Shown here piece after piece: positions 1,480 to 61,460 of a stretch of DNA of 64,000 nt. The position numbers were made by a program, and so were the translations under genes. The DNA comes from an uncultured Candidatus Saccharibacteria bacterium (GTDB taxonomy: Bacteria > Patescibacteriota > Saccharimonadia > Saccharimonadales > CAYUUR01): positions 69,610-133,609 of the forward strand of contig CAYUUR010000003.1 in assembly GCA_964448075.1 (NCBI GenBank), given 5' to 3'. Numbering within the stretch: position 1 is the stretch's first letter; every line of letters starts with the position of its first letter. The notes under the pieces were generated by a model. That model ran no database searches, was not told where the DNA came from, and was given only the letters and a program-made list of their open reading frames with translations.

Positions 1480-1509
1480 CCGCCACCTAATTGTCAAAAG
1501 GATCAACGC

Positions 1510-2793: not shown

Positions 2794-2872
2794 CCGCACA
2801 AAACCGCCTATCATTGATTAAGCTTATGGTATAGTAAAAACATCGTAAGTTAATTGAAAAAGGATTATACGC

Positions 2873-3169
2873 ATGCCTCCACAAGAACCAGCAACAATGC
2901 CACCGCAGCCAACACCACCGGCTCCAACGCCAGAAGTTCCCGGTGTGCCGGCGCCTGATGCACCAGCGCCAGACGTTACTGCGCCAAGTGCGCCCCAGCC
3001 AATGCCAATAAACGATTCGGGAATGGCTCAGCCGCCAGTCGACAACCCAATGGCTGCGGCACTGCCATCGGAACCAGCAAAAAAAGGTAGCAAAGGCGTC
3101 ATGATCGCGGCAATTGCCGGTGCGGTTATTGTCGTCATTATGCTTGCCGTCGCACTTTTGTTTGGATAG
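2873..3169 (+). CDS. Small Pro/Ala/Thr-rich protein with a C-terminal transmembrane anchor
   Basis: 98 aa. It starts MPPQEPATMPPQPTPPAPTPEV and ends in the hydrophobic segment VMIAAIAGAVIVVIMLAVALLF. An extended -10-like box AGCTTATGGTATAGT lies at 2821-2835. Confidence 0.55.
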   Translation: MPPQEPATMPPQPTPPAPTPEVPGVPAPDAPAPDVTAPSAPQPMPINDSGMAQPPVDNPMAAALPSEPAKKGSKGVMIAAIAGAVIVVIMLAVALLFG

Positions 3170-3194
3170 CCAAGAGCTTTCTATTAAGGATTAG

Positions 3195-3215
3195 GCGCAC
3201 CACACAGTGGTGCGC
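3195..3215 (+). terminator. 9-bp GC-rich stem-loop after the small membrane-protein gene (possible terminator, abutting the prfB -10 box)
   Basis: GCGCACCAC-aca-GTGGTGCGC is followed by TATACTTTT. The TATACT could also be the prfB -10, which lies 12 nt before ATG 3233. Confidence 0.4.
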
Positions 3216-3232
3216 TATACTTTTACGCAGAT

Positions 3233-4318
3233 ATGAATGAACTTGAGAAGGCGCTTCAAACGCTTCTAGACCAAATTACGGACGCTATTACACGGCTTGA
3301 TATTGCTGCCAAGGAAGCCCAAATTGCCACTTTAGCCACAAAGGCCTCGCAGCCAGATTTCTGGGATGATTCAGAGGCGGCTCAGCAGGCCATGAAGCAA
3401 CAAGCCAAACTGACGTCGGCCGTTGAGCCATGGAGAGCCTTAGAGGCAAAGGCCAAGGAGGCGCTTGAACTAACACGCCTGAATGATACATCTCTTCTTT
3501 CAGATCTTGAGCAGCAAAAGGATGATATTACACAGTCACTTACTGCGCTCAAGAAAGAATTACAGTTCAGTGCACCCTACGATGACTCTGATGTGATTCT
3601 TAGTATATACGCCGGCGCTGGCGGAACTGATGCTCAGGACTGGGCGTCAATGTTACATCGTATGTACGTTCGGTGGGCGGAGCAACATGATTGTAAGGTT
3701 CAGATGATTGAGCAATCGGCAGGCGAAGAAGCCGGCCTCAAAAGCGTGACATTAGAATTGAGCGGCAGCTATGTGTACGGCAAGCTAAAGGGTGAGCATG
3801 GTGTGCATCGTTTGGTACGTCTCAGCCCGTTTAACTCTGACAGTTTGCGACAAACAAGTTTTGCAAAGGTAGATATACTACCAAAGGTTGACTCGCCAGC
3901 TGACCTCGCGATTGACGAGAAAGACCTGAAGGTTGATGTTTACCGCGCTGGCGGTCATGGCGGGCAGTCTGTTAATACGACCGACTCGGCAGTACGCGTG
4001 ACTCACATTCCAACCGGCATTACCGTCGCTATCCAAAACGAGCGCTCTCAGCTACAGAACAAAGAAACTGCTATGACAATCTTGCGCTCTCGTCTGGCAC
4101 AATTGCAGCTCGAACAACACAAAGAACATCTTGAACAGTTAAAAGGCCCAAACCAGTCAGCCGAATGGGGTAACCAGATCCGTAGTTATGTTCTGCATCC
4201 GTACAAGCAAGTAAAGGATCTACGCACTCGTTATGAATCAAGCGACCCTGATGCAGTTCTTGATGGTGCACTTGACCCGTTTATTGATGCATACCTCGAG
4301 CACAAGTTAGGCGAATAA
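3233..4318 (+). CDS. prfB: Peptide chain release factor 2
   Basis: 361 aa. It has the SPF tripeptide (RLSPFNSDSLRQTSF) and the GGQ motif (YRAGGHGGQSVNTTDSAVRVTHIPTGI). It is one uninterrupted ORF with no in-frame TGA or +1 frameshift site near codon 25. Confidence 0.93.
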   Translation: MNELEKALQTLLDQITDAITRLDIAAKEAQIATLATKASQPDFWDDSEAAQQAMKQQAKLTSAVEPWRALEAKAKEALELTRLNDTSLLSDLEQQKDDITQSLTALKKELQFSAPYDDSDVILSIYAGAGGTDAQDWASMLHRMYVRWAEQHDCKVQMIEQSAGEEAGLKSVTLELSGSYVYGKLKGEHGVHRLVRLSPFNSDSLRQTSFAKVDILPKVDSPADLAIDEKDLKVDVYRAGGHGGQSVNTTDSAVRVTHIPTGITVAIQNERSQLQNKETAMTILRSRLAQLQLEQHKEHLEQLKGPNQSAEWGNQIRSYVLHPYKQVKDLRTRYESSDPDAVLDGALDPFIDAYLEHKLGE

Positions 4319-4350
4319 GCGCCCCATAAAGCTGTGGCATAAGCGGTTCG

Positions 4351-4361
4351 TTTGCTATAAT
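4351..4361 (+). promoter_or_regulatory. Extended -10 promoter of ftsE (TTTGCTATAAT), with the ATG 8 nt downstream
   Basis: TGcTATAAT sits at 4353-4361 and the ftsE ATG at 4370. No Shine-Dalgarno sequence fits in the gap, which suggests a leaderless transcript. Confidence 0.55.
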
Positions 4362-4369
4362 GTTCGTAC

Positions 4370-5059
4370 ATGATTCTATTGGACAGGGTAACAAAGACAT
4401 ATACACGGGGGCTCGCACCAGCCTTAGATCGAGTCAGTTTGCATGTCGAACCAAAAGAGTTTGTCATTGTGGTTGGTTCAAGTGGCGCCGGTAAGTCGAC
4501 CTTACTTAAACTCCTTACGCGTGAAGAAAAGCCCACCAGCGGCAAAATAATTGTTGGCGGCATTGACTACGACAAGCTCAAAGACCGAGACATCCCGCTA
4601 CTGCGTCGTAAGATCGGAACCGTTTTCCAGGACTTTAAACTCTTACCGAATAAAACAGTCGCCGAAAACGTGGCGTTCGCACTTGAAATTGTCGGCATGG
4701 GTAACGGTGAGATCAAGCACACCGTTGCGCGCGTACTGGACATTGTCGGCCTGAAAGGCAAAGAAAAGCGTATGCCGATGGAACTTTCTGGCGGGGAACG
4801 TCAACGTGTGGCGATTGCACGTGCCATTGCACGACAGCCCAAGATCTTGATTGCAGATGAGCCAACGGGTAACCTCGACCCCAAACATGCCTGGGATGTC
4901 GTGACGGTACTCGAGAAGATTAATCAGTATGGCACCACAGTGCTTTTGACGACGCATAATCAGGACATCGTAAACAAACTCAAACGCCGCGTGGTTACCA
5001 TAGAAGACGGCAAAATCGCAAGCGACAGAGCAAGCGGAGGCTACAAAAATGTCATCTAA
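4370..5059 (+). CDS. ftsE: Cell-division ABC transporter ATP-binding protein FtsE
   Basis: 229 aa. Walker A is GSSGAGKST, the ABC signature is LSGGERQR, and Walker B is ILIADEPTGNLD. The gene overlaps the downstream ftsX. Confidence 0.92.
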   Translation: MILLDRVTKTYTRGLAPALDRVSLHVEPKEFVIVVGSSGAGKSTLLKLLTREEKPTSGKIIVGGIDYDKLKDRDIPLLRRKIGTVFQDFKLLPNKTVAENVAFALEIVGMGNGEIKHTVARVLDIVGLKGKEKRMPMELSGGERQRVAIARAIARQPKILIADEPTGNLDPKHAWDVVTVLEKINQYGTTVLLTTHNQDIVNKLKRRVVTIEDGKIASDRASGGYKNVI

Positions 5060-6041
5060 AAAAAACAAGAAAGCACCGCATCATACTGGTCGCTTGCGAC
5101 GTAAGCTGATTGTTTTTGAACGGATTATTAAGACTGGTTGTATTAACTTTGTGCGTAATGCATGGTTAGCAGTCGCCGCTATTGCGGTCATGGTCACGAC
5201 ACTGACTATCGTGCTGTTTTCGGTTATCGCCAATGCCACGTTTAACAATACGATTGAACAACTAACTGACAAGATAGACGTTTCGATATTCTTAAAGGAT
5301 GAAGTAACTGACCAGCAACGCGAAACACTCATTAATGACCTCAACAACCAAGATAACGTCAAATCTGTCGTGTATATCTCTAAGGATCAAGCGCTTGAAG
5401 AGTACAAAAAACAGAATCAAGACAACCTAGATCTGTTGCTGGCGATATCGCAGACCGAGAACCCGTTACCGGCAAGTCTACGTGTTAAGCCAGAGGATCC
5501 CAACCGACTTTCAGAACTACGAACATTCCTTGACAGGGAAGATATCCAGGCATTGCAGTCCGAGGAAACGTCATACTCGGGTGATCGTAAAGAAGCGATC
5601 GATAAAATTACCGCTACGACGGACTTTTTCCAACGTGCTGGGGTAATCAGTGTACTGGTGTTTACGACAATCTCGATGCTCATTATCTTCAACACTATTC
5701 GTATGGCTATATTTAATCGTCGTGACGAACTCAACATTATGCGTTTGTTGGGGGCTAGTACGTGGTATATTCGTGGACCATTCATTGTTGAAACGGTGCT
5801 GTATGGAATTGTGGCTGGCCTCATCTCTGTGCTGATATGCGGGACGCTGTTTACGCTATCCTCTAACACCTTTGAAGCGAGCAGTCTTGGTCTACTAGAT
5901 ATTGGCTTTGCCAACACATTCTTCACGGACAACTACTGGAAGATTTTAGGCATTCAGGTGAGTATTGGTGTCATTATTGGCGCCGCATCCTCATACTCAG
6001 CGACGCGACGCTACCTTAAGTTCAAAGCGCCAAAGAAGTAA
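5049..6041 (+). CDS. ftsX: Cell-division permease-like protein FtsX
   Basis: 330 aa. It has an N-terminal TM segment, an extracellular domain of about 100 aa, then three C-terminal TM segments. It overlaps ftsE by 11 nt. Confidence 0.88.
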   Translation: MSSKKNKKAPHHTGRLRRKLIVFERIIKTGCINFVRNAWLAVAAIAVMVTTLTIVLFSVIANATFNNTIEQLTDKIDVSIFLKDEVTDQQRETLINDLNNQDNVKSVVYISKDQALEEYKKQNQDNLDLLLAISQTENPLPASLRVKPEDPNRLSELRTFLDREDIQALQSEETSYSGDRKEAIDKITATTDFFQRAGVISVLVFTTISMLIIFNTIRMAIFNRRDELNIMRLLGASTWYIRGPFIVETVLYGIVAGLISVLICGTLFTLSSNTFEASSLGLLDIGFANTFFTDNYWKILGIQVSIGVIIGAASSYSATRRYLKFKAPKK

Positions 6042-6145
6042 ACTTATAACCAATACGGAGAACAACTATAGGACTATTTAAGACCTCAAAAATCAATCGC
6101 TACATCTTGAAACCTCGAGATGCGTGTGCTAGAATTAAAGAGCTA

Positions 6146-7315
6146 ATGGTAAAACCAAAAATGCAAAAAATAAAACTCAGCAAAAAATCACTCAGTATTC
6201 TAGTCGTCGCCACTGTTTTGGCAGTGAGCTTTTCTGGAGTTGCACACGTGGCAGCTGACGAGTTTGATGAGAAGATTCGGGCACTAAGCCGTCAAAACAA
6301 CCAAACTGAAGACGCTATTGATAGTCTAGAGGTGCAAGCTGAGAGTCTTGAAAAAACAATCAATAAGTTACAAACACGTATAAACGGCTTGCAGGCGCAA
6401 ATCAATGACAACCGAGCCAAAATGGAGCAGCTCGAAAGTCAGATTGCTGTAGCGCAGAAGAAACTTGATGAACAAAAAGACCTCCTGGGTCAAAACATAC
6501 GACAGATGTACCTCGAGGGTCAGATTACTACTTTAGAGATGTTAGCTTCCAGCAATGACCTGAGCGAGTTTGTTGACCGTCAGCAATACCGTAATTCCGT
6601 AAAGAACCAGATTACAGAGACATTGGATATAATTACGCAACTCAAGCAAGAACTTGCCGCTAAGAAGACCGAAGTTGAGTCACGCCTCAAAGAGCAGCAG
6701 ACACTCCAGACGCAGTTGGCTTCAGAGCGAGCAGAAAACGACCGCTTACTAGGACTGAACGAAGGCGAACAGGCGACGCTTGATAAGCAAATTCGTAAAA
6801 ACAACAAACGCATTGAACAGCTGCGTGCTCAGCAGGTTATAGAAAACCTACGTCTCTTTGGTGGCGGCGCCGGCGGCGGTGTCATCGGCGGTGGTGGTTA
6901 TCCTTGGGGTGGCGCAAAGTGTATGCACACTGGTAGTATTGACGGCTTCTGTCCTAACTATGATTGGGCGGTTGGCGGTTCTGTATGGAACTTTGCAACC
7001 GGTGGGTATGGTTACCGGAACTGTACTGACTGGGTGGCTTACCGTGTCACGGTTCGTGGGGGTCGTGCACCAGGCGGGTTAGGCAACGCTAACACCTGGG
7101 ACGACAGAGCTCCAAGTTATGGCTTCACCGTGAGCAGTACGCCGCGTGCAGGTGCCGCTGCGGTAAGTAACAGTGGCTACTATGGACACGTCATGTACGT
7201 AGAGGCTGTCAACGGTGACGGCACTATTACTATCAGCGACTACAATCGCGCAGGAACTGGCAAGTATGACACTGCCGTTATTAGCCCTGCTGGGCTTCGT
7301 TTCGTGTACTTCTAG
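6146..7315 (+). CDS. Secreted coiled-coil + CHAP-domain peptidoglycan hydrolase (PcsB-like architecture)
   Basis: A signal-like N-terminus (KKSLSILVVATVLAVSFSGVAHVAA) is followed by about 200 aa of heptad-rich Q/E/L/K sequence and a Gly-rich linker. The CHAP catalytic Cys (NCTDWVAYRV) and His (GHVMYVEAV) follow. The start is ambiguous: TTG 6107, ATG 6146 or ATG 6161. Confidence 0.8.
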   Translation: MVKPKMQKIKLSKKSLSILVVATVLAVSFSGVAHVAADEFDEKIRALSRQNNQTEDAIDSLEVQAESLEKTINKLQTRINGLQAQINDNRAKMEQLESQIAVAQKKLDEQKDLLGQNIRQMYLEGQITTLEMLASSNDLSEFVDRQQYRNSVKNQITETLDIITQLKQELAAKKTEVESRLKEQQTLQTQLASERAENDRLLGLNEGEQATLDKQIRKNNKRIEQLRAQQVIENLRLFGGGAGGGVIGGGGYPWGGAKCMHTGSIDGFCPNYDWAVGGSVWNFATGGYGYRNCTDWVAYRVTVRGGRAPGGLGNANTWDDRAPSYGFTVSSTPRAGAAAVSNSGYYGHVMYVEAVNGDGTITISDYNRAGTGKYDTAVISPAGLRFVYF

Positions 7316-7412
7316 TATATGGATAATTTGTACGGTTGTTGAGTGGATGGTATGTCATAATAGACGTGCGTATTACGTTGATATAAAGATGCAAAGATAA
7401 GAGGTTACGGGG

Positions 7413-8624
7413 ATGGATAAACGACTAAAGAGCGGCAAGCGACGACCAAATACTAAACAGGTACTATTGGCTACTTTTGCTGGCGTATTGCTGTTTGGAC
7501 TGGGCTGGGGTTTTGGCACGGGCCGGGTTGGTATAGGTGCGAATGACACGCCGCAGCCTACAAATTCGGAATTGCCAGCAGACCTGACATATCAGGATAT
7601 TGAAACGGTCTACGATACACTCAAAGCCAACTATGATGGTGAACTGACCCTAGAAAAAATCAAGGACGGCCTCAAGAAGGGGCTTGCCGAGGCCTCCGGC
7701 GACCCATACACAGAGTATTTGAGTGCAGAAGAAAGCCAAGAGTTTGATGAGGAATTGGCGGGTTCATTTACGGGTATTGGTGCGGAACTCAGTAAAGAAA
7801 ATGACGTTGTGACGGTTGTAGCGCCAATTGCTGGGTACCCAGCAGAAAAGGCAGGATTGCGCGCCAAAGACGTAATTGTGGAGATCGATGGCAAGAGCAC
7901 TAATGACCTCAGTATCACCGAGGCGGTTAAGCGTATACGCGGGCCAAAAGGTACGGTCGTTAAAATAACAGTTGTACGTGACAAAAGCCAAGAATTGAGC
8001 TTTGACATACAGCGCGACAACATCAACATCCCAAGTGTAGAGTATGAGATTAAGCCAAATAACATTGGCTACATAAAGATATCGCGGTTTGGAGATGATA
8101 CTGCACGTTTGGCTCGCCAGGCTGCAGAAGAGTTCAAACAAAAGAATGTTCGTGGTGTGATTGTTGATGTTCGGAATAACCCTGGTGGCTTGCTCGATTC
8201 GTCTGTTGACGTGGCCGGCTTGTGGCTAAATCAGAAAACCGTTCTTACTGAGCGTCGAGGAGATGTAACAGTCAAGACGTACTCAACGGAGAACGACGCG
8301 CCGCTGAGCGGCATTCCAACTTTAGTGCTTATCAACGAGGGGAGCGCGAGTGCCAGTGAGATCTTGGCCGGTGCACTGAGCGATAATAAAGCCGCAACGC
8401 TTGTCGGTGCAAAATCATTTGGAAAAGGCAGTGTGCAGCGTCTCAATAGTCTACGAGATGGCGGAACGCTTAAGGTGACTATCGCGCGTTGGTATACACC
8501 AAGCGGCAAGAACATCGATAAAGAAGGTATTAAACCCGATAGCGAGGTCAAATTTAGCGCCGAAGATTTTGCTGCAAAAAAAGATCCACAGCTTGACGCC
8601 GCTCTTAAGTCGTTACAGCAATAA
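7413..8624 (+). CDS. ctpA: S41 family C-terminal processing protease with a PDZ domain
   Basis: 403 aa. It has an N-terminal TM anchor, a PDZ-like segment (VVAPIAGYPAEKAGLRAKDVIVEIDG), the catalytic Ser context GSASASEILAGAL and the Lys context FGKGSVQ. Confidence 0.88.
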   Translation: MDKRLKSGKRRPNTKQVLLATFAGVLLFGLGWGFGTGRVGIGANDTPQPTNSELPADLTYQDIETVYDTLKANYDGELTLEKIKDGLKKGLAEASGDPYTEYLSAEESQEFDEELAGSFTGIGAELSKENDVVTVVAPIAGYPAEKAGLRAKDVIVEIDGKSTNDLSITEAVKRIRGPKGTVVKITVVRDKSQELSFDIQRDNINIPSVEYEIKPNNIGYIKISRFGDDTARLARQAAEEFKQKNVRGVIVDVRNNPGGLLDSSVDVAGLWLNQKTVLTERRGDVTVKTYSTENDAPLSGIPTLVLINEGSASASEILAGALSDNKAATLVGAKSFGKGSVQRLNSLRDGGTLKVTIARWYTPSGKNIDKEGIKPDSEVKFSAEDFAAKKDPQLDAALKSLQQ

Positions 8625-8685
8625 CAACCTGTTCTTTTCCAAAGAACCAAACCCCTTGGGCCGTTCCGTCTCCTCGATCAATCTG

Positions 8686-8786
8686 TTGTACAAACCATGC
8701 TTGCTGCGGAACTCACCAATACATTGCCATCAGGCAATGTATTGGCTCAAACAGTCCTCGCACTCAAAGGCGCCTGGTTTGTACAA
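8686..8786. other. Two-tier perfect stem-loop in the non-coding gap
   Basis: The outer 12-bp helix pairs TTGTACAAACCA (8686-8697) with TGGTTTGTACAA (8775-8786). The inner 13-bp hairpin pairs CCAATACATTGCC (8716-8728) with GGCAATGTATTGG (8733-8745) around an ATCA loop. Confidence 0.5.
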
Positions 8787-8854
8787 CATCTTGTCGGGTA
8801 GCCGCAACATGCCCACCCCACGCCCGGACGCGAATAGCAACAACGATATTCTTC

Positions 8855-9228
8855 AGCTATAGGCGTACGGGCGGGGGTCACGCTCTGAAACACCGGTGGC
8901 TGGCAGGATTAAAACGCCGAGTCCAACCAAAAGGCGGTCTGAACTTCGTAACTAAAGAATATAGTGAAGACCACCCTGAAAGGGTGTTCTTTTGGTGCGG
9001 CTTTTTAGTTCTGTCCAGCCAACCGTGTGGCTTCAGCCGCGTGTCTGTTTTTGACATACCTTTTTGTGTCAGCAAAAAGGTATGTGGCTCGCTCGGCAAG
9101 GCCGAGCAGACATATAAGAGCTAGTGGACTTTCTTTGGAAATTGATAAGGGCGGCAGCATTAGCTGGCATGAAGGAGTTGCCGCGATGACAATGCAGTAA
9201 CAAAAACAATTTCCAGTGACATATAGCT
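8855..9228. ncRNA. Candidate structured RNA domain of unknown class (strand unresolved)
   Basis: Terminal helices pair 8855-8861 with 9222-9228 (AGCTATA/TATAGCT) and 8877-8881 with 9216-9220 (GTCAC/GTGAC). Internal perfect hairpins lie at 9054-9085 (13 bp), 9091-9107 (7 bp) and 8972-8986 (6 bp). There is no credible ORF. A near-palindromic extended -10 (TGATAGTATCA, 9231-9241) abuts the domain. Confidence 0.35.
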
Positions 9229-9275
9229 TGTGATAGTATCAGTATCAGTAATACGCGTGAGGGAGTATATACACA

Positions 9276-39204: not shown

Positions 39205-39233
39205 GAATAACAATAGCGTTCGATAATTTTCCG

Positions 39234-39266
39234 AACACGCTGCATGTAGTGGCGTGTTTTTTATTT
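39234..39266 (+). terminator. Rho-independent terminator
   Basis: AACACGC, an 11-nt loop, GCGTGTT and then TTTTATTT. Confidence 0.6.
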
Positions 39267-39327
39267 CGGTCAATCTGTGGATAACTAGAGACATTATGTA
39301 GCAATAACATGCATAAAAGGCTTGCAT

Positions 39328-39375
39328 GTGGGTGAGGGTGGGTAGTATATTCATGTCAGTGGGTAAATGTGGGTA
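39328..39375 (+). promoter_or_regulatory. Four phased GTGGGT(A/G) direct repeats bracketing a -10-like TAGTAT (putative MraZ operator/Pmra)
   Basis: The repeats start at 39328, 39338, 39359 and 39369, with spacings of 10, 21 and 10 nt. TAGTATATT lies at 39343-39351. The mraZ ATG is at 39441. Confidence 0.55.
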
Positions 39376-39440
39376 AGGCAAAAGAGCCGTACCGCACCAC
39401 AAAACAAAAATAAGTTAACAGTAATAAATAACTGTAGACC

Positions 39441-39800
39441 ATGATGGTGGATTATTTCGAAAGGAAACTCGACAACAAGCGACGGCTAACTATACCAGCC
39501 GAACTTCGTGGCGAGTTTATCAGCGGAGTAGTCATAACCCGTGGATTTAAAAATTACCTGCACCTGTATCCGAAATCGGTATGGGATCAGTTGGTAGAAC
39601 CAGAGCTCCAAGGAAGTATCCTTGATGAGCGCGTGGCAGACATCAACGTGCAGTTCAGGATGGGAAAGAGTGATAGTGAACTTGACGCAAAGCAAGGTCG
39701 GATCACTCTTGAACAGCATCTTCTGGATTACGCTGGCATCACTCGTGATGTTGAGGCGGTCCGGGCAGGTAAGTATTGGCGTTTGCAAGCGAAAGCTTGA
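39441..39800 (+). CDS. mraZ: Transcriptional regulator MraZ (short form)
   Basis: 119 aa. It has two SpoVT/AbrB-like half motifs, KLDNKRRLTIPAELR and LDAKQGRITLEQHL, and sits at the head of the dcw cluster. Confidence 0.85.
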   Translation: MMVDYFERKLDNKRRLTIPAELRGEFISGVVITRGFKNYLHLYPKSVWDQLVEPELQGSILDERVADINVQFRMGKSDSELDAKQGRITLEQHLLDYAGITRDVEAVRAGKYWRLQAKA

Positions 39801-40116
39801 TCAGACCGCACATTAACAAATAGCTAGACAGTACGAAGTTAGCTAATCGGCAGTCAACAAGTGATCGAGCTTGCACTATAAAACAAGTTTGCACCTTACA
39901 TAAAACACCTCCCAAAACTCCACCTCACACAATTAAGTCTCTCAAAACTTACGCGTTAAGATAGTTAGAAGTTCCGAGTGATGTAAATCATTCCAAAAGA
40001 ACGTCTTACATACTGTTCTAACGCACACAAAAACAAAAACATCGATAGAGCAGGGATGCTCTTCAAAAAACAAAAAGTTGGCTGCTGGTTAGGTGAGTTC
40101 GTAATAAAACAAAAAC

Positions 40117-45655: not shown

Positions 45656-46760
45656 GCTCAAAGAGCTTGACCAGTCTATACATACAGTCTATGTCGGTGA
45701 ACGTGGTAGTAAGTTCGGTTCCATGACCAAAGACCAGCGTGTTTTTGATGCCCAACGAAAAATCTTTGCCGGCAAATTTAGGCGCTATCACGGTGAATCA
45801 TGGGTTAAACGTGTACTAGACGTCAAGACTAACCTGCTAAATATCCGCGATTTCGTATATGTAGTCTTGGGGATGTTTGAGAGTATGGTGTTACTCATTC
45901 GAGAGAAGCCAGATGTCATACTCCTGAAAGGCGGCTTCGTAGGCATGCCTGTCGGCTTAGCGGCAGCGTTGCTCCGCATCCCGTATATTACGCATGATTC
46001 TGATGCGCTACCTGGCTTGGCAAACCGAGTGGTAGCACGCTGGGCTCGCTGGCACGCAACTGGCATGCCGGCTTCTTTCTATACGTACAAGCAAGGAACG
46101 GTCAAATATGTCGGTGTCTTGGTTGGCGATGCCTATACATTTGTCACAGACGAACTTCGTCATGACTATCGTCGTCAACTCAACATTCCCTTCGACGCCA
46201 CTGTATTAATGGTCACGGGCGGTAGTAATGGTTCGCAGAAACTCAATCAAGCAATGGCAAAACACATCGTTTCAATAAAGGCCAAGCATCCGCGATTGTA
46301 TGTGTTACACCAGACAGGAATTGGCAATGAAGGCGTATATGCTGACATATATCCTAATGGAGTTGACTGGATCGTGGTGCAGGACCTGTTTAAGCAGATG
46401 TATCGTTATAGTGGCGCTGCCGATGTTGTTGTTACGCGGGCTGGGGCAAATACTCTTGCGGAGTTTGGCGTACAAGGCAAGGCCTGTGTGGTTGTCCCTA
46501 ATCCGCTACTCACCGGAGGCCATCAGCTCATAAATGCCGCTGAGCTGGAGAAGCACCAGGCGGTTGTTGTTATCAAAGAGGCAGAATTAGGAGACCGACT
46601 CGAGCCAGTGTTAACAGAGTTGCTTGAAGACGAAAAACTCCGCCATGCCTATGGCAAAAAGCTTCGTGGACTGTCAAAGGTTGATGCTGCAGAAAAGCTC
46701 GCTAAACTCTTGTATGACACCGTTGAGCACAGAAAACCCACCGATTACGAGGCAGCCTAG
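45570..46760 (+). CDS. murG: UDP-N-acetylglucosamine--N-acetylmuramyl-(pentapeptide) pyrophosphoryl-undecaprenol GlcNAc transferase
   Basis: 396 aa with an N-terminal G-loop (LLTGGGTGGHITPLLAVA) and the C-terminal motif RAGANTLAE. Confidence 0.9.
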   Translation: MSKASVTKVLLTGGGTGGHITPLLAVAHKLKELDQSIHTVYVGERGSKFGSMTKDQRVFDAQRKIFAGKFRRYHGESWVKRVLDVKTNLLNIRDFVYVVLGMFESMVLLIREKPDVILLKGGFVGMPVGLAAALLRIPYITHDSDALPGLANRVVARWARWHATGMPASFYTYKQGTVKYVGVLVGDAYTFVTDELRHDYRRQLNIPFDATVLMVTGGSNGSQKLNQAMAKHIVSIKAKHPRLYVLHQTGIGNEGVYADIYPNGVDWIVVQDLFKQMYRYSGAADVVVTRAGANTLAEFGVQGKACVVVPNPLLTGGHQLINAAELEKHQAVVVIKEAELGDRLEPVLTELLEDEKLRHAYGKKLRGLSKVDAAEKLAKLLYDTVEHRKPTDYEAA

Positions 46761-46762
46761 AC

Positions 46763-47695: not shown

Positions 47696-47718
47696 TACCC
47701 CCTGTCACTTCTCTTTCC

Positions 47719-47735
47719 ATGTTCGCAAAATGTTC
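47719..47735 (+). repeat. Direct repeat, left copy (ATGTTCGCAAAATGTTC)
   Basis: It matches 48297-48313 at 16 of 17 positions. It is internally a tandem of ATGTTCGnA with 11-nt phasing. Confidence 0.6.
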
Positions 47736-48296
47736 GCATATAGTGAAACAGTCAATGTATTGAAAAACTATACTAAAGATTCAAAATAGAAAAAAGTCAA
47801 ATAGGGTAGTAATTGATGGAAAGGCGGGGTAGAAGAAAAAAACTATACAAGACAGGAAAAGTAGCAAAATGCAAGTATGCACATGTGGATAAGTCATGAG
47901 TTTTTTGCCACACGTTGTAAATAGCGTCACAAAATACAACGAGACGCTAGGCAGTATTTCAGAGGCTATTTAGTACTGTGAACATGGTTAATGCTTAGGC
48001 AGAGAGCTGCTTAGTAAGCCGAGACAGCAAGCGTGCTAATTATTAGATAAACTCCCCTGTAGAAGAGGTATATGTAATCAACTCCTAACCATAGATTAGA
48101 GTCGCAAAATATACATTGTACGACGTGGAATGTATTGTTCTCTATGTCTTCTCGTATTGCTCTTGTTTTGTTTGTTTTGAGTTACGTTTCATTATTTGTC
48201 ATGATTTTTTAAACCCACCCTGCTTTGCGTGCGGCCTACTACGTGGCGCGACTATTACGTGCTTCTTTCTATGGTATGAAAATATCCGCCTGCCTA

Positions 48297-48313
48297 ATGT
48301 TCGTAAAATGTTC
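48297..48313 (+). repeat. Direct repeat, right copy (ATGTTCGTAAAATGTTC)
   Basis: It matches 47719-47735 at 16 of 17 positions. Confidence 0.6.
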
Positions 48314-48338
48314 TTGTTATGTAAATTCGCACAAACTT

Positions 48339-49926: not shown

Positions 49927-50131
49927 GATGTTCCTATCTGTTATATCTGCTGTCTTGGAGTGAATAGTCCCCTACTCTCTCCTGATATAACGCTAATTAT
50001 AAAACTTAGTCTTTTAAAAGTCAACCCTCATTTGGTATAGGCGTATTGTAGCACAAACTGGACTAGATTTCAGTCAAATGTTGTAGGAATATCACTAGAC
50101 ACTACATACGAACAGATAACAAGTTGCGTTA

Positions 50132-50470
50132 TTACTGTAGTTCAGCGGCTTCTTGGGCTTTTTGCATTGAGCGGCGCTCTATAGCTTCACCAATAATGAA
50201 AGAAGTAGAACCATAAGCGACGATGGTGAGCGCTTGATACGGAAGATTTTCTTCAGCATGTTTTTCACGTATATATGCTCTTGGATCAGCAAGACATTGC
50301 TCAGTAGGTGTTAGTTCACAAGGCTCTGTTTTGCGAGCTTCAGCAATTCGATCTTCTACGTTATGTATGCTGTATGCACCCGCTGCAAGCATAAATATGC
50401 CAAGCCCACGCGCAATTGCGCCTGGTCTACGAGTGGCTTCTGTGATTGATTCAAATGTTTTCATAAGCAT
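50132..50470 (-). CDS. Small two-TM hairpin membrane protein
   Basis: 112 aa. TM1 is LGIFMLAAGAYSI and TM2 is ALTIVAYGSTSFIIGEAI. Confidence 0.55.
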   Translation of the reverse strand: MLMKTFESITEATRRPGAIARGLGIFMLAAGAYSIHNVEDRIAEARKTEPCELTPTEQCLADPRAYIREKHAEENLPYQALTIVAYGSTSFIIGEAIERRSMQKAQEAAELQ

Positions 50471-50540
50471 ACTTTAGCATAATTCCACATATTAATCAAG
50501 CACAAACTTTATCAGCAGTTAGTTAATCAAAAGTAACGAG

Positions 50541-52984: not shown

Positions 52985-53896
52985 ATGGAACGGCAACCCC
53001 CAATTACAGAACCAACTTTCGAAGATTTAACAGCTATCTATGATTTGGCATCTCGTGGCGTACCAATCACCTATGAAGAAGCCAGTGGCACAGACCTCGC
53101 ACGAGTCGCTGCTGCGGCCATAATGAGACATCATGATGCTGACCTCGGTACAGAAATGTTCGTTCAAGAGACGTTACGTAGCTACGAACGCAGCGAGGCT
53201 GCGCATGATTCGCTTATCGCCGCTTCGGCAGCGTTTGATGCCCTTGTATTGTGGGATCTTGGTGAGTTTGAGCTAGAAGATGTTGTTATTGCGCATGATC
53301 GTGCCATTGAGCTTGGTGCCTATGCAAGAAATTTACAGGACCCTACGCAGGACAATCAATACTTGGCGACTGTAGAAAAACTCGATTCAGTTGTAAATAT
53401 GCTGGGCGTAACAGTTGTGCTGTGTCAATATAATGCGCCAGTTGCATTAGAGCATGTAAACGCTGGCTACCAACGCTATACAGATCTTGTCCTTGACCTA
53501 TATACTCGCTTCACGGTGCCTGCAAGGCAAGTCTATGATGATATTAAGCTACTCTATGGTCTTGCGCTTGATGCTGGGGTGGACTTGACTGACAGATTGG
53601 TACCACTGTTAGAAAAAATGGCAGAACAGTCGATATCCGGTGGTACCGAAGATGATTTAGTCACTGGTTTGAGTGCATTAGCTGACCTTGCAGAGTTTCA
53701 GCCAGATAATAAGCAGTATAAAAAGATGGTAAAGTTATTGCGACGTACTCGCTTCTTTGAAGATCTAGTAAAGAATAAGCAAGTATCACCCGCTGTCTCT
53801 GAAGCGTACGAACGGATTGGTGCATTTACGATATCCGATTTATATGACATTAAATATATGTTCAAAGACACCACATACGAGGACGCTATCGCATAG
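52985..53896 (+). CDS. Hypothetical acidic helical protein
   Basis: A 303-aa ORF divergent from topA, with no recognisable motif. Confidence 0.55.
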   Translation: MERQPPITEPTFEDLTAIYDLASRGVPITYEEASGTDLARVAAAAIMRHHDADLGTEMFVQETLRSYERSEAAHDSLIAASAAFDALVLWDLGEFELEDVVIAHDRAIELGAYARNLQDPTQDNQYLATVEKLDSVVNMLGVTVVLCQYNAPVALEHVNAGYQRYTDLVLDLYTRFTVPARQVYDDIKLLYGLALDAGVDLTDRLVPLLEKMAEQSISGGTEDDLVTGLSALADLAEFQPDNKQYKKMVKLLRRTRFFEDLVKNKQVSPAVSEAYERIGAFTISDLYDIKYMFKDTTYEDAIA

Positions 53897-54743
53897 TCCA
53901 CTGGTCGTTGCCGAGTGGCTTCACAATACCTCGAATTTCTAGCATGGTCAGTGTTTGGTTGAATACTGAGGGCGCAAGCTGACTGTCTGCCAGCAAGTCA
54001 GTCCCTCCAATGACTCCCTTATTAAGGAGGTCGATTATAAGCTGCTCCTCAGGGGTTTGGGCAAATATCTCTTGATGCACTGTTTTTGTATCGATGCCGA
54101 GCGCTCGGAGGATATCCTGACTGTTTGTTACTGGCGTTGCACCTGCCTTAATGAGGTTATTGGTACCAGCGCTATGCGGACTGGTGATATTGCCTGGCAC
54201 CACAAGCACATCCCTGCCTTGCTCAAGGGCAAAGTTAGCAGTGTGCAGGGTGCCGCTTTTCTCGGCCGCCTCAATGATAAGCAGCGCTTTACTGAGGCCA
54301 GAAACCAAGCGGTTCCGTGCAATGAAATTCTCGCGGCGTGCATCGGTACCGTCAGGGTATTCGCTGAGTAAGGCACCTTCGTGGTGAATAATAGCTTGGG
54401 CCAGTTGACGATTTGTTGCCGGGTATATCTCGTTCACGCTGCTTGGCAGAATCGCGATGGTCCGCCCGCCGTATTCGATAGCAGTCTGGTGTGCCAATGC
54501 ATCAGCGCCTAGTGCCAACCCGCTGACAACGGTGACTCCGGCACGGATGACGTCTGGCAATAACGCAGACATTGCGCTACGGCCATACGGTGTTATCGTT
54601 CGGCTGCCTATTACGCTCAAACAGATTGAACTATAGAGCCCATCCAGTGGAGCGCCTTTGTGCCACAGTTGTTGTGGTGGCGATGGAATATTTTGGAGGT
54701 TTTCTGGTAAATCCCTTAATTTGATACAATTTTGTGTTTTCAT
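53886..54743 (-). CDS. dprA: DNA processing protein DprA
   Basis: 285 aa with the sequence SGLALGADALAHQTAIEYGGRTIAILPSSVNEIYPATNRQLA...ARNRLVSGLSKALLIIEAAEKSGTLHTA. Confidence 0.9.
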   Translation of the reverse strand: MKTQNCIKLRDLPENLQNIPSPPQQLWHKGAPLDGLYSSICLSVIGSRTITPYGRSAMSALLPDVIRAGVTVVSGLALGADALAHQTAIEYGGRTIAILPSSVNEIYPATNRQLAQAIIHHEGALLSEYPDGTDARRENFIARNRLVSGLSKALLIIEAAEKSGTLHTANFALEQGRDVLVVPGNITSPHSAGTNNLIKAGATPVTNSQDILRALGIDTKTVHQEIFAQTPEEQLIIDLLNKGVIGGTDLLADSQLAPSVFNQTLTMLEIRGIVKPLGNDQWTMR

Positions 54744-54806
54744 GGTTGCACCCCTGTAAAACGCTTATGTTTCTTATAATATCCTTGCCAGACTTACAAA
54801 AAAGTA

Positions 54807-54834
54807 TTGACAATTGTCATAAAGTTGCTAAAAT
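54807..54834 (+). promoter_or_regulatory. Strong sigma-70-type promoter pointing away from dprA into an ORF-free region
   Basis: TTGACA (54807-54812), a 16-nt spacer ending in TGC, then TAAAAT (54829-54834). Confidence 0.6.
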
Positions 54835-54840
54835 TGCAAT

Positions 54841-55196
54841 CCGTAAGCGTGATATTCACGTTTTACGTACCTTATACCCCCAATTCTAACAAATGTTAGA
54901 AATAGTTTTGTTAGATTGTTTTAGAGCGTGCTGTCAAAGTTGTTACCCTCCACTTCGTCTAGCCTCACTGACTTCGGTTAGTGAAGCGCTCTAAAACAGA
55001 CTAACCCCTTTAACTCTGTTCCCGTTTCAAAGCGAGTATTCAAGTATTCCATCTTATGATGGAGGCACAGGTCCTTATATTAATAGACGCTGATGCTTCG
55101 CTGGGTGGGTTGAAGGGTGTATCTGCGGGACGACTCGTTCGTCCCTTGAATAGGCTTCCGGCGGTGCCCACCCCCTCCGGAAGCCTATTTTAGTTT
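54841..55196 (+). ncRNA. Candidate structured non-coding RNA of unknown class
   Basis: It lies downstream of the promoter above. Helices:
- an 11-bp helix pairing 54918-54928 with 54987-54997
- a UUCG-capped hairpin at 54966-54983
- hairpins at 54885-54902, 55051-55064 and 55127-55145
- a 10-bp terminator-like stem at 55152-55186 followed by ATTTTAGTTT
GGGTGGG (55103-55109) is complementary to the terminator loop CCCACCC (55167-55173). Confidence 0.4.
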
Positions 55197-55330
55197 GCGG
55201 TGCCTCACTCGCTTTCAGCGAGCCCGAAACTTACTTGATCGAAAAACAAGTTTTCGTCAGAAGCTTTCCTTGCAAACTGCCACAGGCAGTTCTCACCCTC
55301 CGGAGGCTCTTTTTTATGTTCCTAAGCTAG

Positions 55331-55969
55331 TTAGTCGCGGTAATCAAGCGTAGTAGGCTCTAAACTACCGCCAAAAACGAACTGCGTAATCATCGTCTCA
55401 ACTTCAGAGGTGAGACTCTTGATATGTCCCTGCTCTTCACTGGTGAACTTACCTAAGACAAAATCAGCGCTGTCAGCGCGTGCTGAGAACTCGTTGGCAA
55501 TTCCTACCCTTATGCGCGTAAACTCGCCGTCTAGGTGCTGCTGAAGGGATTTGACGCCATTATTACCGGCACTACCGCCACCCGCGCGTACTCTAATCTG
55601 CCCAAATGGGATATCCAGCTCGTCGTGAACAACCAAAATGTCGTGCGTGTGGATCTTATAAAACTGCTGGGTACTAAAGGCGGCTTCTCCGCTGGCATTC
55701 ATAAATGTGGTCGGTTTGATGATGATAACGCGCGTGCCACCCAGTGTTTTGCTGGTCTGCTGACACTTCAGGTCTTTTTTGTTAACCCAGTCTGGGAATT
55801 CGTTTTTCTGCGCAAAGTGATCAACGCAGGCAAAGCCGATGTTGTGCCGCGTGCCCTCGTACTCCTGACCAATGTTGCCCAGCCCAACCACGAGCACGGT
55901 GCGCTCATGACTTAAGTTATAGATCGGAATGTCGGTATTGGTAGTAGGTTTGCGGACAAATAAAGCCAT
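55331..55969 (-). CDS. pth: Peptidyl-tRNA hydrolase
   Basis: 212 aa with the motifs VVGLGNIGQEYEGTRHNIGF, KPTTFMNASG and VVHDELD. It has an N-terminal extension of about 25 aa. Confidence 0.92.
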   Translation of the reverse strand: MALFVRKPTTNTDIPIYNLSHERTVLVVGLGNIGQEYEGTRHNIGFACVDHFAQKNEFPDWVNKKDLKCQQTSKTLGGTRVIIIKPTTFMNASGEAAFSTQQFYKIHTHDILVVHDELDIPFGQIRVRAGGGSAGNNGVKSLQQHLDGEFTRIRVGIANEFSARADSADFVLGKFTSEEQGHIKSLTSEVETMITQFVFGGSLEPTTLDYRD

Positions 55970-55987
55970 GGCTTTAGTGTATAGCTT

Positions 55988-56503
55988 TTAGAGGCTCGTT
56001 GCCAAGCGTTCATCCACGAGTGAGAACTCTAACGTGTCAAACCGTGTGGCGATTTGCTGGCGAGCGCTGAAGGTTTCTTCGGTCATAAATGATTCATCAG
56101 TAACCCCTGTCGTGCCATCTACTACGAGATGTACTACCTCTATGCCGTTGTCATGTTCACTGTTTCGGTAAGGGACCTTAAGGGCTACGGCTCCAAGCAC
56201 TGTTGTTATGCCCGATAGCTGCAGCATGCGACTCTCGTGCCCGATATTACGTGGGTGTCGTGGATTACGATACCAAGAGTGCCAGACAGAATATAAGGAT
56301 TCATCTGCTGACCAGCCAGCTGTGCCGTAGTCCACACTGCCATGTTCAATCTCAATCTGGTGACCAGTTAATTCTGCCCCTATAGCCGCAATCAGCTGCT
56401 CATTACTCTTCTGGTACTCCACCATAGACTCTTGTAGGTCAAAACGGCGGGACATGTTCGCATTACGTGCTCCCAATAGTTCACCGGACATACTATTAAA
56501 CAT
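55988..56503 (-). CDS. Hypothetical protein
   Basis: The ORF is open to 56776, but that part overlaps der. ATG 56503 is preceded by CAGGAG, giving 171 aa. Confidence 0.55.
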   Translation of the reverse strand: MFNSMSGELLGARNANMSRRFDLQESMVEYQKSNEQLIAAIGAELTGHQIEIEHGSVDYGTAGWSADESLYSVWHSWYRNPRHPRNIGHESRMLQLSGITTVLGAVALKVPYRNSEHDNGIEVVHLVVDGTTGVTDESFMTEETFSARQQIATRFDTLEFSLVDERLATSL

Positions 56504-56591
56504 ACTTGACTCCTGTTTGATGATCGTATTATTACTCCCCACAGAGCAATATGCAAGCTTGGACGGTTTAGCTAGAAGTAGCGTTGGGAAT

Positions 56592-57950
56592 CTAGTCTCG
56601 TTCGGGGCGAGTGCCGTGTTTGTGGGTGACGTGTTTTTCGATAAACCAGAATTTGATTGGCGTACCGTTGAAGCTGTATTGTTCGCGGAGTTGTCGTTCC
56701 ATAAATCGCTTGTATGACCAGTGTAGGAACTTGGTGTGAGCACCAAAGACTTTGAAGCTTGGGTTAGGGTTATCATCTTCTTGGACGATATAGTTCAGCT
56801 TTGGTGTGCGGTTCTTTAGCCCGGCAGGTGGGTGCATTTCTACGACGTTGCGGAGCCATCGGTTAAGCTCTGTCGTTTTGATGCGGCGTTGTCTTTCGTT
56901 GTCAATATCGAGTGCTAGGTCAAAGATCTTCGTGACGTTCTGGCCAGTAACACTACTGGTAAAGATGAGTGGCGCCCATGGCACAAAGACAAATTCGTGC
57001 TTGAGGCGAGCAGCTAGTTGATCACGACTGAATGGGTCCTTGTCTTCCAGGCTGTCCCATTTGCTTACGACGAGTATCATTCCCTTGCCTGATTCTTTGA
57101 TCATGCCGGCAATTTTTTGATCAAGAGCGGTGCCGAGTTCGTTGACGTCCATAAGCATGAGGCAGATGTCAGCCTGCTCAATTGCGCTGAGTGAACGTAT
57201 AACGCTGAAGCGCTCCACGCCCTTGCCTATCTTGCCGCTGCGGCGTATACCGGCGGTGTCGAGTATTTCAATTTCTCTTCCCTGATATTTGACGGTGGCA
57301 CGATTAATATCGCGCGTGGTGCCAGCAACGTCAGCAACAATGGCTTGCTGCTTCTTTGCTAAGGTGTTGAACAGATGTGATTTGCCGACGTTTGGTCGTC
57401 CGAGTAAGGCAATCCGCAGCCGGTTGTCGTCCTCTGGTTCACTGAGGTTCGGGATTTGCTCAACCAGTTCATCAAGCAGTTCACTGACGCCGCGGTTCTG
57501 TGAGGCACTGGTCATAAATATTGGCTTGATGCCAAGGCGCTGGAAGTCGAGGGCCTTGGCACGGTGTGCCTTGTCGGCTTTGTTAACGATCAAGAACACC
57601 GGCTTGCCGGTTTTGAGGGCAAGTTTGGCAACGCGGCGGTCTTCTTCGTTGATAGCTACATGGGCTTCTATAACAACCCAGATGATATCGGCGCTGTCAG
57701 CTGCCTGCAGAATCTGTTCCTGAATCGTAAATTCAAAGTCATCCTGTGGGTCTTTGATACCAGCGGTGTCGACCATCCAGAACTCACTACCCTCCCAGCG
57801 TGCTTTGGCGGTAATACTGTCACGTGTAGTACCTGGCTCATCAGCGACAATCACCTCACGGCGCCGCAAAACAGAGTTAAATAAACTCGATTTACCGACG
57901 TTAGCCCGGCCAACAATAGCCACAATAGGTAGTTTTCTACTCATTACCAA
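56592..57950 (-). CDS. der: Ribosome-associated GTPase Der (EngA)
   Basis: 452 aa. It has two G domains (GRANVGKSSLFN and GRPNVGKSHLFN) plus a KH-like C-terminus. Confidence 0.93.
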   Translation of the reverse strand: MVMSRKLPIVAIVGRANVGKSSLFNSVLRRREVIVADEPGTTRDSITAKARWEGSEFWMVDTAGIKDPQDDFEFTIQEQILQAADSADIIWVVIEAHVAINEEDRRVAKLALKTGKPVFLIVNKADKAHRAKALDFQRLGIKPIFMTSASQNRGVSELLDELVEQIPNLSEPEDDNRLRIALLGRPNVGKSHLFNTLAKKQQAIVADVAGTTRDINRATVKYQGREIEILDTAGIRRSGKIGKGVERFSVIRSLSAIEQADICLMLMDVNELGTALDQKIAGMIKESGKGMILVVSKWDSLEDKDPFSRDQLAARLKHEFVFVPWAPLIFTSSVTGQNVTKIFDLALDIDNERQRRIKTTELNRWLRNVVEMHPPAGLKNRTPKLNYIVQEDDNPNPSFKVFGAHTKFLHWSYKRFMERQLREQYSFNGTPIKFWFIEKHVTHKHGTRPERD

Positions 57951-58001
57951 TCATTATAACAGAGGTAACCGCTATTGACAAATAAACGATAACGTTACAA
58001 A

Positions 58002-61385: not shown

Positions 61386-61460
61386 GGCCTCTTCGTCTAA
61401 CGGTTAGGACACCAGGTTCTCATCCTGGCAATAGGGGTTCGATTCCCCTAGAGGTCACCA
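61386..61460 (+). tRNA. tRNA-Glu (anticodon CTC), with CCA encoded
   Basis: It folds as a cloverleaf. The acceptor stem pairs GGCCTCT with AGAGGTC and the D arm is GTCT-AACGGTT-AGGA. The anticodon arm is CCAGG-TTCTCAT-CCTGG and the T arm is AGGGG-TTCGATT-CCCCT, followed by A-CCA. Confidence 0.9.

Follow-up and report, generated by a model that had tools for sequence, protein, structure and literature searches.

In this study, we describe a new structured non-coding RNA (ncRNA) family that is specific to Saccharimonadia. The member from which we worked lies between dprA and pth on a contig of an uncultured Candidatus Saccharibacteria bacterium (CAYUUR010000003.1), inside the 64,000-nt stretch of DNA that was analysed here and is called the window below. 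We are highly confident that this locus is an independent ncRNA gene of about 355 nt, belonging to a previously undescribed family and kept as a single copy at one syntenic site throughout the class. The general features of a stand-alone structured ncRNA were found together, namely a promoter and a terminator, conservation above that of the neighboring proteins, covarying base pairs, and no conserved open reading frame (ORF). The original prediction, which was made from the letters of the window only, had proposed that this site holds a structured RNA of unknown class, bounded by a promoter and a terminator, and it was supported by cmscan, by covariation, and by the ORF tests.

The loci of related genomes were fetched through Pth alone from GTDB contigs with one genome per species, and this set is therefore unbiased with respect to the RNA. 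The closest Pth relatives in these contigs were Saccharibacteria metagenome-assembled genomes (MAGs) with 42-57% identity. The DprA sequence of the window is present in NCBI and Logan, and its 90%-identity cluster contains an NCBI protein assigned to Candidatus Saccharibacteria bacterium. Positions 54798-55198 of the window were matched by blastn and nhmmer in 24 Saccharimonadales species genomes, always after pth and on the opposite strand. Despite the low identity of Pth, RNA blocks of 10-19 nt were invariant in the 25 Pth-found genomes. In the MAFFT alignment of these loci (A1), the -35 and -10 boxes were invariant, and the invariant blocks CGUACCUUAUACCCCC..UUCUAAC, GUUAGAUUGUUUUAGAGCG, AAGUUGUUACCCUCCACUU, CGCUCUAAAACAGACUAACCCCUUUAAC, GGGGUGGGUUGAAGGGUG, and GCGGUGCCCACCCCCUC alternated with segments that varied in both length and sequence. 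The element TACCCTCCACT of hairpin H3a was invariant in 25/25 of these genomes. A metagenome scan with the pattern ACCCTCCAC-N(38-68)-ACCCCTTTAA returned at least 120 loci; among those listed, about 100 were full-length homologues and about 16 were chance matches. Covariance-model matches were obtained in 88 of the metagenome loci and in 18 further ones.

A covariance model of the RNA 5' domain (R1) gave one match in the window, at 54838-55014 on the + strand, with 143.5 bits; its reverse-strand matches on other loci scored about 24 bits. R1 matched every Saccharibacteria locus with room for the RNA except two (L018 and L030), where the 1.7-1.9 kb of flank beyond pth may be too short, and it had no match in 50 pth loci from phyla other than Saccharibacteria. 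The length of the RNA ranges from 270 to 420 nt in the relatives. A search for DprA homologues aimed at cultured oral strains yielded only close relatives among the matches listed. Comparison of the dprA-pth regions of related genomes had been proposed as a check on the prediction, and these regions do carry the same element with many covarying pairs. One locus, DATIJU010000014.1, is labelled as a Bacillota bacterium, has the order der-pth-RNA-dprA-topA with a full RNA copy, and is probably a mislabelled MAG. Another contig, classed as viral (IMGVR_UViG_3300049064_000004, 1-8444), carries a complete RNA gene at 7975-8370, and upstream of it dprA is replaced by RecT, a PD-(D/E)XK-FtsK fusion, a Dcm methylase, and a Dam methylase. 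This contig may be a prophage or an integrative element inserted beside the RNA gene in a Saccharibacteria chromosome.

The sequence from 54838 to 55200 has a folding energy of -132.7 kcal/mol (z = -7.7 relative to dinucleotide shuffles). Folding of the opposite strand is nearly as stable, which Watson-Crick helices would lead one to expect, and G-U pairs are frequent in the RNA helices. RNAalifold on A1 gave 59 pairs, 29 of them with compensatory changes. When a hand-built structure was laid on A1, 36/75 pairs changed on both sides and 90.8% of the cells were paired, vs 82.1% for shuffled columns and no more than 56% for slid partners. This count supports H1, H3, H6, H7a, H8, and the terminator (Table 1). 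H4 is supported by the RNAalifold pair counts and by a switch from AAC/GUU to AAG/CUU, in which UUUAAC/GUUGAA changes jointly to UUUAAG/CUU(G/A)AA. In a model-based alignment of 88 metagenome sequences (A4), compensatory changes were present in 21/31 pairs, with 235 cells against 63 in shuffles, and one divergent member folded alone into the same architecture.

H3 was also counted without an alignment, using the invariant anchors only, and was 90-97% paired with 3-5 pair types per position; on A4, 12/18 of its pairs were compensatory and 95.7% were paired. In divergent clades, the sequence of H3 is wholly different yet complementary, for example GCAGGUAAGCG/CGCUUAGCUGC. The two strands of H3 are the only places in the window where GUUUUAGAGCG is found, and other covarying sequences replace it in relatives. 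H3 encloses a three-way junction with H3a and the variable hairpin H3b. In the proposed fold, the G-rich strand (GGGUGGG followed by UUGAAGGG) pairs with CCCUUUAA, and with the terminator loop UGCCCACCC by conserved complementarity only, and the invariant C-rich loop UACCCUCC and the linker ACCUUAUACCCCC stay unpaired. Several of the divergent members have a 3'-domain insert of no more than a few tens of nucleotides, and H8 is absent in four loci (L031, L013, L016, and L011). Four of the helices named in the original prediction (54842-54867, 54918-54928/54987-54997, the UUCG-capped 54966-54983, and 55127-55145) are present and show compensatory changes in relatives. The predicted CCAUC-UUAU-GAUGG hairpin exists as H7a, but lies at 55049-55062 instead of 55051-55064. 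The AACAGA/UCUGUU helix had to be given up, being not conserved and in conflict with the covarying H3 and H4.

H2 is more variable. Among 104 distinct sequences, this region takes the short-loop form CUAAC-loop-GUUAG in 43 and carries an inserted hairpin in 35; seven sequences were classed by script as having their own GUUAG, which is clearly so only in the window, L124, and L196, and H2 is absent in L087 and L193. In most relatives, the CUAAC of the H2 5' strand has only the GUUAG of H3 as a pairing partner. This invariant GUUAG can take as its partner the upstream CUAAC of H2 or the downstream CUAAC that extends H3 (55001-55005). Thus, across the region corresponding to 54885-54914 and 55001-55005 of the window, most members have a single invariant GUUAG for which both invariant CUAAC copies compete, and in the three sequences with a second GUUAG both copies can pair. 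The competition may be a conformational switch or an intermediate of co-transcriptional folding. In a subset of loci (L004-L007, L014, L026, L028, and others), a 3'-domain hairpin loop carries (G)UGGAG(U), which the window copy does not have. Its sequence complements the invariant CUCCA(C) in the loop of H3a, and the two may form a loop-loop contact within or between molecules. A kissing loop between the invariant loop and the GGAG loop was rejected as a feature of the family, since the GGAG loop is found only in this subset.

The strong promoter predicted at 54807-54834 is present. A single site of this kind is not above chance (two promoter-like sites were found in a 2-kb scan vs 2.1 expected), but a promoter was found at a fixed distance from H1 in 122/129 family members. 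In these 122 homologues, the -35 box is TTGACA in 113, the extended -10 box is TGnTAnnAT, and the spacer is 17 nt (16 nt in 8). In the window, transcription would start at about 54838-54843. The terminator stem, which had been described as 10 bp at 55152-55186, exists and covaries, and its actual extent is 12 bp (55150-55161/55177-55188) plus two G-C pairs. It was 91% paired vs 64% after partner shuffling, with 4-5 pair types at most positions, and 10/14 of its pairs were compensatory in the A1 count. The terminator loop is the 9-nt UGCCCACCC at 55165-55173, identical in 119/122 sequences, and a U-rich tail follows the stem in relatives.

The region behind the terminator (55189-55330) has a weak fold (z = -2.0), and its conservation does not extend beyond a few close relatives (L028, L009, L027, L015, and L021). 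It holds CACCCUCCGGAGG with a U-run, a repeat of the ACCCUCC motif. The second CCCUCCGGAGG/U-run element that had been noted at 55296-55316 shares this weak fold and narrow conservation. The tail, which runs from the RNA terminator to the pth stop, may serve as a back-up terminator; the idea of a second RNA in this tail was rejected because of the weak folding and the conservation in close relatives only.

The gap measures 587 nt (54744-55330) and is flanked by dprA (53886-54743) and pth (55331-55969), both on the - strand. As originally stated, no ORF of at least 60 aa lies wholly inside it. In nearly every locus, topA and dprA lie on one side of the RNA gene, with the RNA promoter back to back with the dprA start, and pth and der lie on the other side, with pth running towards the RNA. 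Both dprA and pth are on the strand opposite the RNA in essentially every locus. With dprA behind it and the 3' end of pth ahead, the promoter has no gene downstream on the RNA strand. This agrees with the claim that it has no protein gene to serve; pth lies opposite to the RNA in the window as well as in every locus examined. The RNA 3' hairpin is often 0-50 nt from the pth stop. The RNA gene is kept in two loci where dprA is absent (L013 and L016) and in loci where other genes intervene before pth, up to 3.5 kb.

We regard the RNA as non-coding. The 45-aa ORF at 55056-55193 overlaps the G-rich strand and the terminator, and its conservation at the protein level had been raised as a question. 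The frame is not kept: the spacing between the G-rich strand and the terminator loop in relatives is spread over all three classes modulo 3 (44/35/30), and in-frame stops occur in 44/109 distinct sequences. A small protein was accordingly rejected, with tblastn of the 45-aa ORF giving only fragmentary matches that track the invariant RNA blocks.

The statement that the RNA fits no known class also held. A cmscan of the whole window at gathering scores against all 4227 Rfam 15 families gave only tRNA-Glu at 61386, and the sole matches at E<=10 on the gap (751 nt searched) were four to eukaryotic, viral, or unrelated families, all due to chance; no match was found at E<=1 in 8 homologous loci. 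ARAGORN likewise found only tRNA-Glu and no tmRNA in the window. For RNase P RNA, neither RNaseP_bact_a nor RNaseP_bact_b matched at these thresholds, the 5' and 3' ends are unpaired in the minimum free energy and consensus folds, and no P4-type core was found in the RNA. For tmRNA, there was no match to the Rfam tmRNA clan, no T-arm, no tRNA-like domain, and no conserved frame in the 3' part. A permuted tmRNA, suggested by the likeness of the loop CCCUCCA to an acceptor 3' strand with U70 and A73, was rejected for want of a T-arm and a conserved tag frame, and GGGUGGG pairs poorly with CCCUCCA and perfectly with the terminator loop. For 6S RNA, RF00013 did not match, and the multi-domain fold, which has a three-way junction and ends that do not pair, shows no rod around a central bubble. 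No match to the Rfam signal recognition particle (SRP) clan was found at E<=10. No aptamer family of riboswitches or cis leaders matched, and pth is on the opposite strand in all loci examined. The raiA, OLE, ROOL, GOLLD, and HEARO/omega RNA models were negative in cmscan, and the neighbors are dprA, pth, topA, and der. No tandem repeats or CRISPR array were found in the 64-kb window. A tracrRNA, considered for the likeness of GUUUUAGAGC to a Cas9 repeat, was rejected for lack of an array in the window and of conservation of this sequence. In full-text searches, no mention of the RNA was found in the literature on Saccharibacteria and Patescibacteria ncRNAs, the Southlakia transposon sequencing (Tn-seq) study, a Patescibacteria perspective, and ncRNA surveys of 26 and 50 genomes, and no lineage-specific ncRNA was reported in the Saccharibacteria and Patescibacteria papers checked.

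Table 1. Features of the RNA gene in the window. A1, alignment of Pth-found genome loci; A4, alignment of metagenome sequences.
Feature	Position	Strand	Remarks
Promoter: -35 TTGACA, 16-nt spacer, extended -10 TGcTAAAAT	54807..54834	+	11/12 matches
H1, 5' hairpin CGUAAG...UUUACG around CGUGA-UAU-UCACG	54842..54867	+	5/6 pairs changed on both sides (A4), 89% paired (A1)
Linker UACCUUAUACCCCCAAU, unpaired, C-rich element 1	54868..54884	+	invariant or near-invariant columns; variants exist
H2, UUCUAAC-AAAU-GUUAGAA, hairpin of variable length	54885..54902	+	
H3 5' strand, GUUAG-AUU-GUUUUAGAGCG	54910..54928	+	alignment-free and A4 counts
H3a, AAGU/ACUU stem with invariant 11-nt loop UGUUACCCUCC (54941-54951), C-rich element 2	54937..54955	+	
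H3b, CACUGAC-UUCG-GUUAGUG, third junction arm	54966..54983	+	hairpin of other sequence and length there in relatives
H3 3' strand, CGCUCUAAAAC-AGA-CUAAC	54987..55005	+	pairs with 54910-54928
H4 5' strand, CCCUUUAAC	55006..55014	+	contiguous with H3 3' strand; pairs with GUUGAAGGG (55109-55117); 98.5% paired
Variable insert, 3' domain: H6, H7a, and a further hairpin	55015..55102	+	short forms in relatives
H6, AGCGAG with UUCGCU	55031-55036 with 55097-55102	+	5 pairs with compensatory change
H7a, CCAUC-UUAU-GAUGG	55049-55062	+	5 pairs with compensatory change
G-rich strand, GGGUGGG followed by UUGAAGGG	55103..55117	+	3' half in H4, 5' half complementary to terminator loop
H8, GGGACGA-CUCGU-UCGUCCC, optional hairpin	55127..55145	+	4/6 pairs compensatory
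Intrinsic terminator	55150..55198	+	12-bp stem 55150-55161/55177-55188 with 2 inner G-C pairs, U tail 55189-55198

Taking gene, fold, and mechanism together, we lean towards the following explanation as the best one. The near-consensus sigma-70 promoter would drive the RNA, and its own hairpin would end it. The 5' domain consists of H1, the C-rich linker, H2, and the long H3 opening into a three-way junction, one arm of which displays the invariant 11-nt loop carrying UACCCUCC. The 3' strand of H3 continues unbroken into CCCUUUAAC, which forms H4 with the 3' half of the G-rich strand, and GGGUGGG would pair with the terminator loop CCCACCC as a putative pseudoknot. CUAAC runs directly into CCCUUUAAC, as GGGUGGG does into UUGAAGGG, and GGGUGGG is complementary to CCCACCC, so that H3, H4, and the pseudoknot could stack. 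Such stacking would give a single rod and anchor the 3' hairpin to the core. We speculate that a cellular partner binds to the C-rich elements, which are invariant and unpaired and would be exposed as a contact surface by this rigid, pseudoknotted core. The consensus promoter, the single syntenic copy, the class-wide retention in genomes of about 1 Mb, the core, and the C-rich segments led us to infer a housekeeping RNA. It is only tentatively that we regard the RNA as an abundant, trans-acting housekeeping RNA, most likely acting as a ribonucleoprotein (RNP) subunit or scaffold, or by sequestering a protein, rather than as a regulator that pairs with mRNA. More doubtful again is that it represents a previously unrecognised housekeeping RNA class of Saccharibacteria, such as an RNP subunit, a ribozyme, or a ligand-binding RNA, which would possibly be essential to these episymbionts with their reduced genomes. 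If true, this housekeeping RNA would compare with tmRNA or RNase P RNA in lineage conservation.

Several points weigh against this explanation. The shuffle controls ignore phylogeny, and the pair counts are therefore descriptive and not probabilities. The original prediction had suggested that GGGUGGG (55103-55109) and CCCACCC (55167-55173) form a pseudoknot; the two are complementary and essentially invariant, but not a single pair between them covaries, so that it is the invariant complementarity which points to this contact, and the G-run is disrupted in two sequences. GUUAG can pair with either of the two CUAAC copies, which makes part of the fold ambiguous. The invariance of ACCCUCCAC and ACCCCUUUAA in the metagenome set was forced by the search pattern, and hence only the 25 genome loci are unbiased for these motifs. 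The synteny with dprA and pth is one of gene order and not of co-orientation, and it names no partner. Finally, transcription and the RNA ends are deduced from sequence signals.

A different role would be that of a base-pairing regulator or decoy, in which the loop UACCCUCC, resembling the anti-Shine-Dalgarno tail of 16S rRNA (CACCUCC), binds Shine-Dalgarno-like sites of mRNAs or titrates a factor of the 16S 3' end. The C-rich loops of RsaE/RoxS and of the streptococcal csRNAs target Shine-Dalgarno sites, and in our RNA CCUCC sits in an 11-nt hairpin loop that is invariant in 25/25 unbiased genomes, with further C-runs unpaired. However, in about 0.9 Mb of related loci the most enriched 7-mers upstream of start codons were -10 boxes and not GGAGG, and GGAGGGU upstream of starts was not enriched (0.6), most of its copies being the RNA genes themselves. 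In der, pth, and topA, TATAAT or TATACT precedes ATG by only 7-12 nt, so that these genes are leaderless or nearly so. Known pairing small RNAs, moreover, are much smaller than this RNA and have far less intricate folds. We thus consider a pairing role unlikely, and a Shine-Dalgarno decoy or nearby target was rejected, because complementary G-rich sites were not enriched upstream of starts or elsewhere in the 0.9 Mb. An improbable reading is a self-assembling particle made of RNA only, in which homo-oligomers are held by loop-loop contacts, with the C-rich loops and the G-rich strand of different molecules pairing. ROOL, GOLLD, and OLE are reported to form homo-oligomers (PMC12286853). The large, ornate, and lineage-restricted RNA with its conserved complementary C-rich and G-rich elements would suit such a particle, as would the (G)UGGAG loop complementary to the invariant loop in a subset of members; but this loop is found in part of the family only, and one molecule can satisfy all conserved complementarity.

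It is very unlikely that the RNA is a highly divergent RNase P, tmRNA, 6S, or SRP RNA missed by the covariance models. Its size, single copy, strong promoter, putative pseudoknots, and lineage-wide conservation would fit, and RNase P RNAs of candidate-phyla bacteria that fall below the Rfam cut-offs have been reported in a genome set including two Saccharimonadia genomes (Lui et al., PMC8172020). The Rfam model nevertheless recovered those RNAs once its thresholds were lowered, which argues against an RNase P reading here, where the low-threshold searches and ARAGORN were negative, the ends are unpaired, and no P4-type core, tRNA-like domain, tag frame, or central-bubble rod is seen. We give hardly any weight to the view that the locus has no gene product of its own and is a long untranslated region, a cis leader, an insulator or bidirectional terminator, or a small protein gene. 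The 3' hairpin close to the pth stop could end pth transcription too, and small ORFs exist in the window copy, but the promoter faces the 3' end of pth with no gene downstream on its strand, the RNA is retained without dprA and at up to 3.5 kb from pth, a terminator would not require about 30 covarying pairs together with invariant loops, and the ORF frame is not kept. Least credible is an RNA of a mobile element, either a guide or omega-type RNA or an attachment target of a phage or integrative element. The IMG/VR contig with a full copy beside RecT, the PD-(D/E)XK-FtsK protein, and two DNA methylases, without dprA, and the likeness of GUUUUAGAGC to a Cas9 repeat would speak for it. Yet the site is fixed and syntenic in more than 100 loci with no adjacent transposase, TnpB, IscB, integrase, or cas gene; the window holds no tandem repeats or array, unrelated covarying sequences replace GUUUUAGAGCG in other clades, and 6/7 of the pattern matches in viral contigs are due to chance.

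Some observations concern the surrounding genes. In many genes of the loci (L003-L202; in the window at 55970-55990 and 57951-57975), a -10 box, often TGnTATAAT, lies 7-12 nt before ATG without a Shine-Dalgarno sequence, and leaderless or near-leaderless mRNAs seem common in the Saccharibacteria lineage. The description of the genome as otherwise tightly packed did not hold uniformly, for a crude call of ORFs of at least 120 aa leaves several window gaps of similar or larger size. Those of 600-1100 nt lie at 45656-46762, 39205-40116, 8625-9275, 47696-48338, and 49927-50540; no Rfam match at gathering scores was found in them, and they may hold short genes or further non-coding elements. A 262-aa ORF between pth and der (55988-56776) overlaps the 3' end of der (56592-57950) by 185 nt, and the public gene call for the identical contig has a 171-aa product in its place. 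The long form is probably over-extended, because its weak tblastn matches fall on the der overlap.

Saccharibacteria are ultrasmall and host-dependent, and dispensable DNA can hardly be accommodated in their genomes of about 1 Mb. Retention of this RNA gene (270-420 nt) at a single site throughout a class whose proteins have diverged to about 50% identity, with a consensus promoter and invariant unpaired sequences, implies a core function and indicates an important and probably abundant cellular component. Standard annotation overlooks the gene. Some Saccharibacteria are culturable, naturally transformable, and amenable to Tn-seq (PMC10187176). The family is well supported, comes with a ready covariance model, and joins the short list of large orphan bacterial RNAs.

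Compared with known systems, the RNA shares with RsaE/RoxS and the csRNAs the exposed C-rich or CCUCC-type loops and the terminator hairpin at the end. Those RNAs are simple hairpins of 90-150 nt, whereas the Saccharibacteria RNA is 3-4 times larger with a putatively pseudoknotted core, the surveyed neighbor genes of this lineage are for the most part leaderless, and the search for an enriched target motif was negative. 6S RNA and the mycobacterial Ms1 are abundant stand-alone RNAs that bind RNA polymerase and do not act by base pairing, and Ms1 is about 300 nt and restricted to its phylum. The Saccharibacteria RNA is likewise stand-alone and structured, and its abundance and protein binding are only proposed; it differs in having no central-bubble rod and no cmscan match. 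With tmRNA and RNase P RNA it has in common a similar size, a single copy, lineage-wide conservation, putative pseudoknots, and invariant long-range helices. Unlike them, it has no tRNA-like domain, tag frame, or P4 core, its ends are unpaired, its 3' end is a terminator hairpin within the conserved fold, and Infernal and ARAGORN were negative. OLE, ROOL, GOLLD, and HEARO are also large structured RNAs from comparative genomics, with many covarying helices and with roles that are unknown or recently glimpsed. In contrast to these, the Saccharibacteria RNA is smaller (270-420 nt), has no adjacent partner protein genes and no cmscan match, and is syntenic and chromosomal rather than phage- or plasmid-associated. 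The raiA motif RNA of Firmicutes and Actinobacteria is a stand-alone, pseudoknotted RNA of a few hundred nucleotides with its own promoter and terminator and conserved junction nucleotides; it has a fixed neighborhood, is lineage-restricted, and to our knowledge has no known function. It differs from the Saccharibacteria RNA in helix layout, phylum, and neighboring genes, and no cmscan match links the two, but the Saccharibacteria RNA is, like raiA, a stand-alone, lineage-restricted, and in its case putatively pseudoknotted RNA at a fixed site.

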